Positions 4,832 to 9,429 of a stretch of DNA of 64,000 bases are shown piece by piece. The stretch is from Candidatus Latescibacterota bacterium. GTDB lineage: Bacteria; Latescibacterota; UBA2968; GCA-2709665. The stretch spans positions 1,152,001 through 1,216,000 of the forward strand of contig OZ250150.1 in the NCBI GenBank assembly GCA_965237675.1, in the 5' to 3' direction. The notes under the pieces were generated by a model that searched no databases, had not been told where the DNA came from, and saw only the letters and a program-made list of their open reading frames with translations. The first letter of the stretch is position 1. Every line of letters starts with the position of its first letter. The translations under genes and the position numbers were made by a program.

Positions 4832-5455
4832 CTAAATATCAAAATGCGCTTCGAGTCGCTCGGGAAGGGACGTCCACCATGCGTCTCCGGCCGAGAGACG
4901 GAGGATGTGCGTGTTACCCGGAACGTCGTTTGCGCCAAGGCCTTTTTCGAAGACGATCGTGCGGGGGTCGCGCTCGAGAAATTTCCCGATGCGTGCTTCC
5001 AGGCGCTCCCGGGTTCGGATGATGCAGGCGCCGGTCAGTTCGGCGGCCGGCAGGTCGAGCAGGTGGTCGACGTTCCAGTGCAGGTTCTTGAGTCTTTTTC
5101 GAGTGAGATTTCCGTCTCCGAGACCGATGGCATTGAATCGCCGCAGCATTTCGTCCCGGATGTTGTGAGGTCGCCTTCGGCCGGTCCGGGTGGCGTGGCG
5201 GACCAGCCGGTTGGCCAGTGACGCGGGGCCCTTCTGTGACATGGCGGACCCGACGTACACGTACTCACCCGCCGGAAGCGTTATGATTTTTCCTCGTTTG
5301 AATCCGCCAAAAGAAAGCGCGGCACTCTCCTTGAGTCGAATCCGCAATACATAAGACCCGCCCTGGAAATCGCCGCCCAGAAAGACGATGGAGGATGCCT
5401 CAGGATTCACGTCAAGCACTTTGTTAATGCAGCGCACGTTGGAACTGCCCCACAT
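4832..5455 (-). CDS. DUF123 / GIY-YIG (Uri) superfamily endonuclease
   Basis: GSYVLRI...GEYVYVGSA...RLVRH...LHWNVDHLL pattern; the true start may be a little downstream. Confidence 0.75.
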   Translation of the reverse strand: MWGSSNVRCINKVLDVNPEASSIVFLGGDFQGGSYVLRIRLKESAALSFGGFKRGKIITLPAGEYVYVGSAMSQKGPASLANRLVRHATRTGRRRPHNIRDEMLRRFNAIGLGDGNLTRKRLKNLHWNVDHLLDLPAAELTGACIIRTRERLEARIGKFLERDPRTIVFEKGLGANDVPGNTHILRLSAGDAWWTSLPERLEAHFDI

Positions 5456-6607
5456 TTACCAGTCGGCACGCAAAGAGCGCCTCAATTCGTCGTACCTTTT
5501 CGCTTCCCACGCCTGATAGTCTTCTGGTGCACGCCAGAATTCCTGCCATGCCGAGTTCAGGAGACCCACGATTGGCGTCAACGCGCCTGGCTTTGCTGTC
5601 ACCACACCGGTCCCTTCGACTCCTTCTTTTGTCGCCGAGACGACTTTCGATAGCAACTCTTCGGGGTAACACTGACGGTATTCGGGCTCTACTTTGTAGC
5701 CCATTATCTCAACGAAATCCCGCCAGGCCGTATCGATCCGCTCCACTTCCCCACCGAAGCCGTTCGCCGTCAGCATCGACAGCATCGCACGCATACGTGC
5801 ATCGTCTGCCGGGTGCGTTGATACAAACTTCAGAGGAGTCTCGAAGGGATCACCACCGCGTTTTACACATAGGTGATAATGAGACCAGGCAAAGGCCGGT
5901 CCTGTTGTCAGCACACCGAAGAGGTCACAGAAAAACTCTTCCATCCAGTATTTCGTCCACGAAGTTTCCCACAAACGTAGTTGATAGACCTTTCCCTTCG
6001 GCTTGTTTATGCGTTCGGCGGCTGTGATTTCACCTCTAAAGTACTCTACCATGTGAAACAGGTTTCGCTTGTAGGCCGCATGGTATGATACAAGAGCCGG
6101 AAGATCTAGTTTCTGCTTGTAATGAAACGGATGGCAAAGTTCGTGATAAATATCTGGGAGATGAAGCAGAAACCGGCTCTCGATTAAAGGCAAACAGAGA
6201 AGATTAAAGTCCCGATAAATATGAAAATAGCCCTGAGAGATATGGCTAACGACTGGGCGAATCAGAGGATACATTATCTCGCCGCAAACATCCGTAATCA
6301 GGCGGTTAAGGAACTCATCGTCTCGACTCACCCGGCTGAGGGCGAATGCGCCGACGTTTTCAACATTGTTGAGTTGACTTACAATGCGTTTAAATTCTCT
6401 CACTCGCCGGGGTGTCTGTAACGCCGTATCGACAATCGTCTCCGCGGACAATCGTTGTAGAGAAGCCTGCGACTCGTTGAGTTGTTTCAAACAGATCTTC
6501 CGCAATCTGTCATATTCGCACGGGTATTTCCCCTGTACGATTTGGCGTAACTGACGCGCCCGCTCGAGTGATTGGTCAATGGACCCGGTCAAGTACTTCT
6601 CGACCAT
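5456..6607 (-). CDS. Argonaute-operon protein with zincin-type metalloprotease motifs (M48/Lit-like)
   Basis: HELCH (HExxH), downstream EEFFCD and THPADDARM; ATG overlaps the upstream stop (TGATG). Confidence 0.7.
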   Translation of the reverse strand: MVEKYLTGSIDQSLERARQLRQIVQGKYPCEYDRLRKICLKQLNESQASLQRLSAETIVDTALQTPRRVREFKRIVSQLNNVENVGAFALSRVSRDDEFLNRLITDVCGEIMYPLIRPVVSHISQGYFHIYRDFNLLCLPLIESRFLLHLPDIYHELCHPFHYKQKLDLPALVSYHAAYKRNLFHMVEYFRGEITAAERINKPKGKVYQLRLWETSWTKYWMEEFFCDLFGVLTTGPAFAWSHYHLCVKRGGDPFETPLKFVSTHPADDARMRAMLSMLTANGFGGEVERIDTAWRDFVEIMGYKVEPEYRQCYPEELLSKVVSATKEGVEGTGVVTAKPGALTPIVGLLNSAWQEFWRAPEDYQAWEAKRYDELRRSLRADW

Positions 6608-6972
6608 CAATGCCCCCGAATTCGCCGGGCAATGTCCGCCCGTTCCTGTTCCAGTCTCTGAGCAAGGCTTTCTAACTTTTCGTGATAGCTAATATCAACC
6701 TGGCCATTGAGTAGACACTTGCCAAGCGCTTTCAGGCCGACGAAGGGGTCGCCGGTGTTTGACCGAAGCAAGCTGTCCAGGGTCAGCGCTTCAACGGATT
6801 GGGATTTGAGACCCTGATCGCTGGCATCGACAAGAAGCTGACCGAGTTTCAACTGATCTGGATCCGGCGAAAAAGTTCCGCCCTCTTCAAGGCGTTCAAT
6901 TACCCTGTCTATCAAGCTGCCATATTCCTCCACATCGGCGTAAACCCCCCTCAGCAAACTCAAATCACTCAT
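6607..6972 (-). CDS. Small alpha-helical hypothetical protein in the Argonaute operon
   Basis: 121-aa ORF with an ATGA overlap with the Argonaute stop and an overlap with the next gene. Confidence 0.75.
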   Translation of the reverse strand: MSDLSLLRGVYADVEEYGSLIDRVIERLEEGGTFSPDPDQLKLGQLLVDASDQGLKSQSVEALTLDSLLRSNTGDPFVGLKALGKCLLNGQVDISYHEKLESLAQRLEQERADIARRIRGH

Positions 6973-9344
6973 TTTACGACCTCCTCCTGAAGATGGGCAC
7001 TTGCAAACTCGATGGCGTCTTGATCGTATTCCGCGGCTTCGTCGAACAGGCTGCGATCACATAACTTGATCGAGACCGGCAGACGCGTCGCACCTTCCGG
7101 GCGAGTCCAAGTCAGACAGCTAAGTGAAAAAACATCGGACAGGCAATGTTCGAGGGGCATTTCACCAGCCGCGCGGCGGACATGTAGTGGATTGGACGTC
7201 CCCGGAATCCAAAATGGTCTTCCGGTTGTACTTACGAAGCCTTCGTTTGGAGCAGTTTGAATCCAATTTCCGACCAACGGGTTCTCGACATTGATCCCGT
7301 GGGCGTTACCTGAAGGCTTCACATCAAACAGCCGCAGTGGTGCTGGCGCGGACTTGGCTATTTCAACGACTGTGAGCTGCCAGTCCTGGTCGAGTTGCCC
7401 TTCTATAGATAGCCGCCGACATGCTTCTTCTAGCCCTTTGATTTCCGACGGCCATGTCCGTCCGTCGCGATGCACCACGACATGTTTTGGGCGATTGCTC
7501 AAATGGTGTTTTTCTTGGCGGATGAGATCACTCACGAACTGTGTAACTTGATTCTTTAGCAATTGTTCTTTTTGACGGGATGAACTCGTGGAAAGTCTAA
7601 TTATCTCACCTCCATTTGCAATCATCGTGAAGGCAGCGGTGTTATTCTTGACGTCAATCCCGATCACTACATCAGCATGTAACGGTTTATCGAGAATAAA
7701 CGGCCATTTACCATTGGTGAGTAGAATCTTATTGAGCGCGACGTTGCGAAGGTAAGCGAGGAAACGGGCGCGCTCACTTTCCTTTAATCTGTAGCTTGTT
7801 TCGTCCTTTATTGTTAAACTCGCGTACGACTTCCTTGCCATTTGCGTGTGAATAACAGCTGCGTTCAGCCCGAATACATCTGGAAATTCCTTTACGGTCC
7901 ACGCCACCAGTTGATCTTCAGATCTTGTCCGGCGATCATAACGATGCACCATTACGAGAGCGTAGCCTGGCCTGACTCTGGCAGTTTCAACTGCCTTTCT
8001 GATCGCACTCGTCTGACCGACGAAATCACGTTTGAAATTAAGGTCGTCATATACTATCACGTAAGGATTGTAACCACCTCCGTCGGGATAGAGGTTTTCA
8101 ACCTGTTTTCTAAGGTCTTCGAGAAACTTCGGACCATAGCTATTCTCAACACTCTTGGGTAGCACGAGGTATTGCCGATCCAGGAAGTTCTTCACGAAGA
8201 AACCCGCGTTCTCGTCCCCCAATAATGCTAGCCTCTTTCGCCCATAATCTTTAATTGCTAAGTCCGCATCGCGTTCTTTGTCTACAAGGCGTAGCGTTAC
8301 ACCATTTCCAAAACGCAAGTCAGGTGGTAAGAACGGTTTCGTTGTTATACGCCCCGGACAATCCGAAACCGAGAGATTGGCGTCTCTGACCCGCACGCGA
8401 CTCAGAAACATCTTAACGAGTCGTTTAATCTGACTGTGCCGTACTTTAGGTTCTATAACCGTCTCGTGTTGATATTTGGCGCCCTCTCGGGTGTGCGTAT
8501 CTTCGACTAGATGGCAGAGCGCTGCTGGTGCTGAACGTTGTTCCGGTCCATTTGTGCGATAATAAATCGCAGCACCATCTGGCGATAGATTTGCGATCGA
8601 TGGAGGTACCGGTTTGGGTGAAGTTCTGTTTAGATAATCGATCAAACTAACCACTTCTCTCTCAAGTGGTATCGAGGGAGTGCCGATATCCATATCGACA
8701 AGGCCGGAGAGAGTAACCTCGAACCAATTGCGTCCCATCTTATAGACGCATGATCGACCTTTGAGCTCGTTGATCTGCTCTCGCTTCGCTCCCGTTGGTA
8801 GCGGAGATCTCGAGACGAGTTTACGCCGAAGATCTGCTACAAGGCCAAAACCACCCTCTGGGTGTAATACGGTACGCATAGCGAAGCCTTCGTAAAGGTC
8901 AATCTTGCCCAGTTTTTTCTCCGGTTTCTTAAAAAAGAATGGCTGTCCAGCTCCTGGCTGCCAGAGGCGCGAATCCTTCCAGAGCACTCCCTGAAAAATA
9001 AACTGAAGGAAGCGTAAACGGACGGGGTCGAGATCCGGATCGGTCGTTGTGAAATCAAGATCTATTGTCTCTCGAGTGTCTTTCAACGTAACGACGACGC
9101 CAACAAGCATGACAAGATTTGGCGGATCCCCATATCCGGTTGGAATTGCCAAAAAGGCCTCGCTCTTCCTGTCGTAGGTAGTCACCGGTGCCTTCATCTG
9201 AAAGCTCAACTGCCGGATGAGCCGTTGTACATTGGCATAATAGTCTAACCCATCTCTTTGCAGACCAGCGATTTGGTACAGACGGTATGTTGAATTTAAC
9301 GCATCTAAGCCATCAATGCGAAAGCAATTCGTTTCAATAGACAT
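6969..9344 (-). CDS. ago: Long prokaryotic Argonaute (about 791 aa), predicted catalytically active
   Basis: PIWI motifs VIGIDV, QKEQ, VVHRDGR, VEIAKS, PLHV, LSCLTW, RLPVSIKLCD. Length fits N-PAZ-MID-PIWI. Start at MSIETN preceded by GGAGA. The ORF-track extension to 9467 runs into the IS. Confidence 0.92.
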   Translation of the reverse strand: MSIETNCFRIDGLDALNSTYRLYQIAGLQRDGLDYYANVQRLIRQLSFQMKAPVTTYDRKSEAFLAIPTGYGDPPNLVMLVGVVVTLKDTRETIDLDFTTTDPDLDPVRLRFLQFIFQGVLWKDSRLWQPGAGQPFFFKKPEKKLGKIDLYEGFAMRTVLHPEGGFGLVADLRRKLVSRSPLPTGAKREQINELKGRSCVYKMGRNWFEVTLSGLVDMDIGTPSIPLEREVVSLIDYLNRTSPKPVPPSIANLSPDGAAIYYRTNGPEQRSAPAALCHLVEDTHTREGAKYQHETVIEPKVRHSQIKRLVKMFLSRVRVRDANLSVSDCPGRITTKPFLPPDLRFGNGVTLRLVDKERDADLAIKDYGRKRLALLGDENAGFFVKNFLDRQYLVLPKSVENSYGPKFLEDLRKQVENLYPDGGGYNPYVIVYDDLNFKRDFVGQTSAIRKAVETARVRPGYALVMVHRYDRRTRSEDQLVAWTVKEFPDVFGLNAAVIHTQMARKSYASLTIKDETSYRLKESERARFLAYLRNVALNKILLTNGKWPFILDKPLHADVVIGIDVKNNTAAFTMIANGGEIIRLSTSSSRQKEQLLKNQVTQFVSDLIRQEKHHLSNRPKHVVVHRDGRTWPSEIKGLEEACRRLSIEGQLDQDWQLTVVEIAKSAPAPLRLFDVKPSGNAHGINVENPLVGNWIQTAPNEGFVSTTGRPFWIPGTSNPLHVRRAAGEMPLEHCLSDVFSLSCLTWTRPEGATRLPVSIKLCDRSLFDEAAEYDQDAIEFASAHLQEEVVK

Positions 9345-9429
9345 ACGGCTTCTCCCAGCAAATGTTGCGAAATGCACAGCGTTGGCAGGTTTCTGCATGA
9401 ACGGCGGTTCGGAAATCTTCGACATATAG
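9334..9429 (-). pseudogene. Detached 3' end of the Cas4-like nuclease gene
   Basis: Translates LYVEDFRTAVHAETCQRCAFRNICWEKPYVY*, carrying the CxxC-x5-C Fe-S ligands; in frame with 11119-11967 once the IS is removed. Confidence 0.85.

Follow-up and report, generated by a model that had tools for sequence, protein, structure and literature searches.

A putative zinc metallopeptidase and its small partner protein in Argonaute operons: a candidate latent protease switch

We describe a putative zinc metallopeptidase, Z384, that is encoded in a prokaryotic Argonaute (pAgo) operon of Candidatus Latescibacterota bacterium, within a 64,000-nucleotide stretch of contig OZ250150.1 (assembly GCA_965237675.1, positions 1,152,001 to 1,216,000; hereafter the window, whose own numbering is used below). 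Directly upstream of its gene lies that of a small acidic protein, p121, and we consider it reasonably probable, at about 0.6, that the two proteins form a latent protease switch. According to this explanation, Z384 would be a cytoplasmic zinc metallopeptidase made together with p121 as a tight heterodimer, in which the body of p121 docks on the N-terminal bundle and a helical hairpin of Z384 and the N-terminal tail of p121 threads the catalytic cleft beside H156, E157, H160, E225 and H266. p121 would keep the peptidase occupied, either as inhibitor or as first substrate, and a signal would then free or fire the peptidase, leading to cleavage of a protein substrate. We infer both the trigger and the target. 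In operons of RNA-cutting pAgos the signal would most likely come from the Ago/nuclease part, and the most likely output would be inactivation of the transcription factor partner (an XRE-family regulator here, a sigma-factor set in another group of operons) or cleavage of cell proteins resulting in growth arrest. The explanation draws on the invariant motifs of the peptidase, the zincin fold of its model, the strict pairing of the two genes, their fixed place in both types of pAgo operon, and their survival after loss of Ago.

The two genes and the motifs of the peptidase are placed in the window as follows.

5456..6607, minus strand: Z384 peptidase gene, intact, 383 amino acids from the ATG at 6607
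6131..6145, minus strand: HELCH (H156-H160), putative zinc-binding and catalytic HExxH motif, on helix 152-163
5924..5941, minus strand: EEFFCD (E224-D229), the E-x-x-x-D of a "glutamate helix" (205-236), with E225 the presumed third zinc ligand
5792..5818, minus strand: THPADDARM (T265-M273), an HP-x4-R motif of the kind found in M48 and U49 peptidases
6607..6972, minus strand: p121, an acidic helical protein of 121 amino acids (pI 4.8), directly upstream of Z384

As called, the Z384 frame extends from 5456 to 6610 on the minus strand and has 384 codons from a TTG start. Its homologues begin at codon 2 (ATG 6607), giving a protein of 383 residues whose coordinates match those in an earlier account of this DNA made without database searches (the sequence-only reading). 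That account had picked out HELCH, EEFFCD and THPADDARM, and their positions were confirmed from the sequence and its translation. It had also proposed that they compose the zincin-type metallopeptidase pattern of HExxH, E-x-x-x-D and HP-x4-R, and had named non-conservation of the HExxH among homologues as evidence against itself. In an alignment of 59 sequences of the Z384 family, picked across the whole similarity range and having a mean column identity of 37%, H156, E157 and H160 were invariant (59/59), as was the rest of the pattern; the sole invariant columns were E84, H156, E157, H160, W222, E225, D229, G237, H266, P267, R272 and W355. A chance occurrence of HExxH was rejected because the catalytic-type motifs are invariant across the family. 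We infer from these motifs that Z384 binds zinc and is proteolytic.

The family is sizeable and nameless. A word-indexed search found 326 relatives, all of them unnamed or annotated as hypothetical protein and with no Pfam domain on record, and an exhaustive search of 50%-identity representatives identified 622 at E ≤0.001 and 140 at E ≤1e-30. No family model in Pfam (E up to 1), NCBIfam or PADLOC matched Z384, and a sequence-profile search of the PDB with the family alignment produced no match at E up to 10. A Pfam scan recognised no DNA-binding domain in the protein, and no GAF domain was found in it. Among 80 genome loci that encode the peptidase (numbered with the prefix L below), 74 retain the complete 12-site pattern. 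The exceptions comprise two substitutions (H266 to P in L023, P267 to L in L060), two changes at position 355 (L050 and L020, in the latter of which the gene is split into two frames) and two genes truncated where the contig stops (L054 and L078). The maximum Kyte-Doolittle mean over 19 residues is 1.12, with no transmembrane segment and no hydrophobic N-terminus, in agreement with the earlier view that the protein is soluble and cytoplasmic.

The AlphaFold2 model of whole Z384 had a predicted local distance difference test score (pLDDT) of 97.3 and a predicted template modelling score of 0.94. It comprises an N-terminal three-helix bundle (1-94), three short strands (within 120-139), the HExxH helix (152-163), a long helical hairpin (171-236) placed between the HExxH and the glutamate, of which the second helix (205-236) bears E225 and D229, and a C-terminal helical domain. 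Foldseek searches of the PDB, run with the complete model and again with its catalytic part, returned nothing at E ≤0.001. VIA-align with the whole model matched only generic helical bundles to residues 1-94, and because the bundle swamped this search residues 95-384 were modelled separately (pLDDT 97.1). With that part, all 13 of the solved chains at Z ≥5 were zinc peptidases. BepA (6sar_A) headed them at a Z of 7.8, which is under the tool's caution line of 8 (root-mean-square deviation 4.1, 142 residues aligned), and was followed by neprilysin (7.4), PepO (7.3), ZMPSTE24 (6bh8_A, 7.2), Zmp1 (7.0), the Haemonchus H-gal-GP peptidase (6.7), the M48-like 3c37_B (6.6), ECE-1 (6.3), Ste24p (4il3_B, 6.2), abylysin (5.3), 4l7a (5.2) and jannalysin (5.0). 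Below a Z of 5 were BlaR1, M1 aminopeptidases, selecase, ArdC (4.7), thermolysin, PprI with single-stranded DNA (4.2) and SPRTN (3.5). It is the uniformity of this list together with the motifs, and not the Z values, on which we base the zincin assignment. As modelled, the catalytic core is a zincin (clan MA gluzincin), in which the strands at 120-139 are followed by the HExxH helix and then the glutamate helix.

The sequence-only reading had described the peptidase as M48/Lit-type. The invariant motifs and an M48 member at the top of the fold list speak for that description, and membership by family model does not: Z384 was matched by none of PF01435 (M48), PF10463 (U49, the Lit family) and PF06114 (M78). 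A genome-wide search with PF01435 retrieved two other M48 genes only, no U49 protein was found in the window's own genome, and 2 of the 59 relatives touched Peptidase_M78 at E 7.7e-4 or weaker, below the cut-off. The fold likeness to M48 is also not exclusive, given the Z of 7.8 for BepA, yet 7.4 and 7.3 for neprilysin (M13) and PepO. In the ESM Atlas, all clusters above 0.9 were unnamed, and the nearest named entry, U49 or M48 at 0.79, is a lead only.

The comparison with M48, U49 and M78 that the same reading had proposed was carried out with Foldseek, with the null result given above, and by local hhalign against family alignments (M48 and M78, 30 proteins each, taken from related genomes; U49, 4 proteins). 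The Z384 family scored 81% with M78 (E 1.2e-5 over 50 columns, with the HExxH and the ExxxN/D-x-FA aligned across a gap of about 40 columns), 7.8% with M48 (E 0.0044, with ExxxD and HP..R aligned column for column) and 6.4% with U49 (THP..R aligned). These values fall in the same range as those among the three families themselves (M48 versus M78, 79.5%; M78 versus U49, 75.4%; M48 versus U49, 7.4%). In these alignments the counterpart of E225 and D229 is E..AD in M48 and E..AN in M78. Since the distances of the Z384 family from M48, M78 and U49 resemble the distances among those three, we read Z384 as a member of a distinct, unnamed gluzincin family, and not of M48 or Lit. By its sequence, the family combines a C-terminal motif of the M48/U49 type with a long spacer like that of M48 and a core that resembles M78; the spacing from H160 to E225 is 65 residues, compared with about 25-30 in M78 (H96, H100 and E129 in the part of the CapP description available to us).

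Each of these families differs from Z384 in further ways. The M48 peptidases (HtpX, BepA/YfgC, Ste24/ZMPSTE24) share with it the HExxH, E-x-x-x-D and HP-x4-R motifs and provide its best fold matches. In M48 the glutamate ligand lies in an E-x-x-x-D some 60-75 residues past the HExxH, and BepA has a His-246 switch. HtpX, Ste24 and BepA are membrane-bound or periplasmic, whereas Z384 is soluble and without membrane or periplasmic signals, and has in addition the N-terminal three-helix bundle, the C-terminal helical domain and an obligatory small partner. The M78 pairs (ImmA/ImmR, IrrE(PprI)/DdrO and CapP/CapH) likewise combine a zinc peptidase and an XRE-type helix-turn-helix (HTH) protein in one defence operon. 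Unlike them, Z384 has a hairpin of about 45 residues inserted between its motifs and no GAF domain that we found, is not adjacent to the HTH gene, and also occurs with a sigma factor or without a regulator. Lit is the e14 abortive-infection protease that cuts EF-Tu, and it resembles Z384 in being an HExxH peptidase of the cytoplasm, in its defence setting and in an alignable THP..R stretch; the low hhalign score and the lack of a PF10463 match set the two apart, and we know of no obligatory partner of Lit and of no link between it and Ago.

The gene of p121 is translationally coupled on both sides, by an ATGA overlap with the Ago gene and by a TGATG (one base) with that of Z384. The protein matched no family in Pfam, NCBIfam or PADLOC. 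With an iterated profile, a p121 homologue was identified directly before the peptidase in 79 of the 80 loci, and the remaining locus starts at a contig end inside the peptidase gene. All 77 homologues whose profile match begins at position 1 have an ATG start followed by S or T (MS or MT) and mostly then by x-x-GL, within a conserved N-terminus of MS-x-x-GL-x-SG-x-Y.

Prediction of the Z384-p121 complex gave an interface score (ipSAE) of 0.88 in three of three runs, compared with 0.00 for the best of three controls. Of 80 solved complexes, 58 reach this mark, and of 110 mismatched pairs, 2 do; the calibration is only rough with custom alignments. The runs shared at least 88% of contacts, and p121 had a pLDDT of 86. 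On the Z384 side, the predicted interface consists of bundle helix 3 (61-78), the edge strand (125-134), the hairpin (180-192 and 209-221) and, at the catalytic side, residues 153, 156-157, 160, 224-225, 228-229 and 265-266. On the p121 side it includes residues 1-10, and residue 160 of Z384 is placed against residue 5 of p121 with an expected error of 1.2 Å. Residues 156, 157, 160, 225, 229 and 266 all contact p121 residues 1-10 in the predicted complex, and the putative zinc ligands would thus line one cleft. The conserved N-terminal tail of p121 is predicted to lie in this catalytic cleft in the pose of a substrate or a plug; the evidence fits an inhibitor and a first substrate equally. The tissue inhibitors of metalloproteinases (TIMPs) and the serralysin inhibitors are known examples of proteins whose N-terminal tail extends to the zinc. 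Among the mechanisms offered by the sequence-only reading (a toxic effector activated by the Ago-target complex, or a protease that cleaves the XRE repressor or the 121-residue protein), the predicted pose favours a direct link between Z384 and p121.

The pair is embedded in an operon with the minus-strand gene order XRE, Cas4-like nuclease, (insertion sequence), pAgo, p121, Z384, DUF123, the remaining features of which are these.

11967..12362, minus strand: XRE-family HTH regulator (HTH_19 and HTH_3, about 6e-12; PADLOC capH, 9.6e-7)
12362-12334, minus strand: promoter-like site TTGACA-17-TATATT, 11 of 12 positions, overlapping the TTG start of the XRE open reading frame (ORF)
11080..11967, minus strand: Cas4-like PD-(D/E)XK nuclease, the "Aga" nuclease of class II pAgo (PDDEXK_1, 1.3e-5; PADLOC Aga_Cas4-like_Nuc, 9.9e-113, residues 1-283)
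9427..11121, plus strand, ends approximate to a few bases: insertion sequence (IS) with a DDE_Tnp_1_4 transposase gene at 9510-10874 (Pfam, 1.7e-156)
6969..9344, minus strand: pAgo of the PliAgo group (PADLOC pAgo_II PDLC02382, 1025 bits)
4832..5455, minus strand: DUF123 protein (PF01986, 1.4e-15), its ATG abutting the Z384 stop codon with no spacer

Detection of the pAgo and the XRE regulator by Pfam and PADLOC bore out the earlier recognition of an Argonaute operon with such a regulator. Its placing of Z384 at the operon's end did not hold, as the DUF123 gene starts directly after the Z384 stop codon and Z384 is therefore not the last gene in the window's operon. A DUF123 gene after the peptidase was found in four of the 80 loci (L001, L003, L007 and L011), and we regard it as a lineage-specific sixth gene.

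The pAgo frame is open up to 9467, and its alignment to PliAgo begins at M42. PliAgo (7r8k/7r8f) is the closest solved relative (E 1.7e-208), and the window protein has a DEDD tetrad of D605, E634, D668 and D804 (ORF numbering) aligned to D563, E592, D626 and D762, the tetrad given with these entries in the accessible text of Lisitskaya et al. 2022 (PMC9360449). Because the tetrad is complete and the protein PliAgo-like, the window pAgo should be an active DNA-guided RNA cutter. The same accessible text describes one operon type with an HTH regulator, a Cas4-like nuclease and a pAgo, and a second group that has a sigma-70 factor instead. The window operon fits the description of the PliAgo group, with a DEDD pAgo after a Cas4-like nuclease and an HTH regulator, and with the IS lying between the nuclease and Ago.

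In other genomes the pair keeps this company. Searched with phmmer, the 80 peptidase loci showed the same gene order, with Ago detected in 74 of them, XRE in 72 and the nuclease in 70. One further locus, L149, is a sigma-70-type pAgo operon (4973-12342; best PADLOC pAgo model PDLC02383) with the order sigma-70, a 198-residue protein, Cas4-like nuclease, pAgo, a 147-residue protein, a 374-residue peptidase homologue and a PIN_12 protein. Its 374-residue protein aligned to the Z384 family at 100% in hhalign (E 1.4e-59) and its 147-residue protein to the p121 alignment at 49%, and no PADLOC model matched either of the two. As both proteins are present there in matching places, the pair is common to both pAgo operon types. 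A PIF1 helicase-HTH_40 gene lies upstream of the L149 operon on the opposite strand. In L025 (5113-8004), L053 (5176-8001) and L058 (5083-8007) the Ago frame enters the p121 ATG without a stop, so that these loci possibly encode Ago-p121 fusion proteins of about 940-975 residues.

Additions at the other end of the pair vary. Peptidase homologues of 609-632 residues have a C-terminal CHAT domain by Pfam (P0135, 4.3e-9; P0144, 2.4e-4; L051, 7956-9827, 4.6e-9), and the genes found tightly 3' of the peptidase encode DUF123, PIF1 helicase-TPR (three loci), S8 subtilase, RNase H-helicase or PIN_12 proteins. The CHAT fusions and the varying 3' genes suggest a variability like that of effectors. The distribution of the peptidase is patchy, with homologues in 10 of 26 close relatives and in 18 of 168 genomes of the phylum. 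Five plasmid records, two of them conjugative, contain homologues, and a tblastn search of phage records found no match. On the Runella slithyformis plasmid pRUNSL03, which has a PliAgo-type operon, none of the genes for Ago, the small protein and the peptidase has an annotation beyond hypothetical protein. Directly past the pAgo operon of this conjugative plasmid (L157, 7444-9623) are genes for a multiubiquitin-domain protein, a ThiF-family adenylyltransferase and DUF6527, which resemble a ubiquitin-like conjugation defence set.

Several points weigh against a latent protease switch. Purified alone, the close relatives PliAgo, RslAgo, PnyAgo and HpeAgo cut RNA with supplied guides (PMC9360449, accessible text), and given its full DEDD tetrad and the unaided activity of these relatives in vitro, the window Ago would need no effector. 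The literature searched, including Ryazansky 2018 and Lisitskaya 2022 in their available text, makes no mention of a peptidase in pAgo operons or of the small-protein gene, and Fig. 1b or Supplementary Fig. 1 of PMC9360449 may draw both genes. The complex with p121 is a predicted one, scored against the rough calibration given above, the fold similarity of Z384 to solved zinc peptidases is modest, and Foldseek found none. Of the three in-frame Ago-p121 junctions, the one in L025 has a Shine-Dalgarno-like GGAGG before the p121 ATG; with this site still present, p121 may be translated separately.

The remaining points against concern Ago itself. At least nine loci (L001, L003, L007, L011, L012, L035, L064, L065 and L066) are without nuclease and Ago, and their deletions have differing end points (for instance, nuclease residues 1-19 are joined to Ago residues 754-832 in L001, and 1-91 to 803-831 in L003/L011), while XRE, p121 and the peptidase remain with all catalytic residues. 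Pairs without Ago also follow an AAA_15/DUF3696 ATPase gene (L009, 7507-9155), a STAND-NTPase gene (L150, 7873-11056) and a type IIG (Eco57I-like) restriction-modification gene (L152, 9282-10850). For the 150-residue partner in L150 and L152 we do not claim homology to p121 (hhalign 0.8%); only its size and place are alike. Because the pair persists without Ago and beside unrelated genes, its action cannot strictly depend on Ago. Its persistence and its occurrence alone lead us to view it as a portable, perhaps addictive, module, and they also keep in play the two rival explanations in which Ago has no part in firing the peptidase.

One of these rivals, which we judge unlikely, is that Z384 is solely an anti-repressor of the CapP/ImmA/IrrE kind, which would sense DNA damage or single-stranded DNA and cut XRE to induce the nuclease and Ago, with p121 as an accessory and with no link to target recognition by Ago. 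XRE and the peptidase share an operon in 72 of the 80 loci, the window XRE matches PADLOC capH, and the Ago-deleted loci retain exactly XRE, p121 and the peptidase. The hhalign score with M78, and the two relatives that touch Peptidase_M78, point the same way. Alignment of 73 XRE sequences revealed a variable linker, then a conserved C-terminal AARIGxVTxEEExALxEYLxFxRSR and a basic tail (window 11967-12110), which could be a partner-binding or cleavage region, and the linker and motif resemble the region cut in DdrO and CapH, as far as the available text of PMC12828697 and 10.1101/2022.04.27.489752 describes it. However, in intact operons other genes separate XRE from the peptidase, which in the window lies three genes and an IS away from it. 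In the other pAgo group a sigma-70 factor and an unrelated 198-residue protein stand in place of XRE and the pair is kept, which argues against XRE as a universal substrate; with L009, L150 and L152, where no XRE is nearby, this makes the pair independent of XRE. Z384 also departs from CapP and IrrE in that no GAF domain was found in it, in the 65 residues between its HExxH and glutamate compared with about 29, and in its obligatory partner with the predicted cleft pose.

The loss of nuclease and Ago from at least nine loci with differing end points, leaving a pair with all its catalytic residues, would also be expected of a self-sufficient toxin-antitoxin-like or abortive-infection pair, with the peptidase as toxin and p121 as antitoxin, that stabilises the island or serves its own defence and rides in pAgo operons. 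Lone pairs beside defence-type genes (the ATPase, the STAND NTPase and the type IIG system), the predicted partner tail in the active site, the patchy distribution and the plasmid records are consistent with such a pair. We nevertheless find it quite unlikely, as Ago stands in a fixed gene order in 74 of the 80 peptidase loci, the pair is retained in both pAgo groups, the in-frame junctions between Ago and p121 speak for a functional link, and no PADLOC model matches the pair. Very improbable, in our view, is a housekeeping helper of the Ago pathway that matures or turns over Ago or the nuclease, or clears proteins off DNA for guide making in the manner of SprT/Wss1-type peptidases. The weak fold matches to the DNA-linked zincins ArdC, PprI and SPRTN, and the constant position of the pair beside a nuclease that presumably makes guides, would suit a helper; the four pAgos that cut RNA alone with supplied guides (PMC9360449, accessible text), the survival of the pair without Ago and the failure to recognise a DNA-binding domain in Z384 by Pfam scan do not.

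The latent protease switch may be taken one step further, to a possible but doubtful reading as the Argonaute counterpart of Craspase, in which engagement of target RNA would be relayed via p121 to the plugged zinc peptidase and nucleic-acid recognition would be converted into a proteolytic signal. We speculate that p121, which may be fused to the Ago C-terminus in some genomes, would plug the cleft until target RNA is bound, and that the freed peptidase would then cut XRE or an anti-sigma-like protein, or switch on the DUF123 nuclease, PIN or CHAT add-ons; plug and protease would form a portable output module used also away from Ago. In the available accounts, Craspase (type III-E Cas7-11 with the TPR-CHAT protease Csx29, the substrate Csx30 and the sigma factor RpoE) is a guided RNA-targeting nuclease co-encoded with a protease, a small protein and a transcription factor, as is the window system. 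The likeness extends to that transcription factor, which is a sigma-70 in the PnyAgo-like operon and XRE in the window, and to the CHAT domain on some peptidase homologues. The two differ, on the same accounts, in a caspase-like as opposed to a zincin fold, and the system described here has a DNA guide and an Argonaute nuclease and is known from genes and models.

Co-encoding of a pAgo with a protein able to act after target recognition is likewise a feature of the short pAgo systems SPARTA and SPARSA and of long-B pAgos. The known pAgo effectors (those of SPARTA and SPARSA, and the nuclease, Sir2 and membrane effectors of long-B pAgos) are NADases, nucleases and membrane proteins that accompany inactive pAgos, whereas the window pAgo keeps its DEDD tetrad and the associated enzyme is a peptidase. 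PADLOC models cover the pAgo and the Cas4-like nuclease, and none covers the p121-Z384 pair.

RNA-cutting pAgos (PliAgo, RslAgo, PnyAgo and others) are under development as RNA tools, and of the five genes that are constant in their operons, two, for the small protein and the peptidase, have no annotation other than hypothetical, for example on the Runella slithyformis plasmid. The natural role of these pAgos is an open question in the accessible text of the paper that describes them (PMC9360449). If the protease switch is correct, this would be the first protease-linked Argonaute system and, after Craspase, a second, independent instance in which guided recognition of RNA is coupled to proteolysis. 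A new family of soluble gluzincins with a protein plug in the cleft would also be defined, of relevance to protease regulation and to programmable protease output. New here, in our view, are the partner protein and the pose predicted for it, the occurrence of the pair in a second type of operon, its forms without Ago or standing alone, and the fusions; pAgo systems with accessory enzymes and zincins plugged by a protein are known kinds.

Additional features of the window concern expression of the operon. The probable true start of XRE is M13, at 12326. Because this conserved methionine codon (ATG 12326) falls a few bases past the -10 box of the promoter-like site, the XRE mRNA may be leaderless. 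The IS, of which at least 14 copies at 100% identity are present in the same genome and whose ends were set by the limits of the multi-copy matches, lies in the 3' end of the nuclease gene and supplies its last codons (from about 11121 down to 11080). The insertion splits the operon and thus separates Ago, p121, Z384 and DUF123 from the XRE-proximal promoter-like site. An IS or other insertion inside the operon was also observed at the related loci L002, L006, L022 and L151. Upstream of the operon, on the minus strand, are a DUF433 gene (12531-12773, 2.6e-25) and a gene for an ankyrin-repeat protein (12883-13689).

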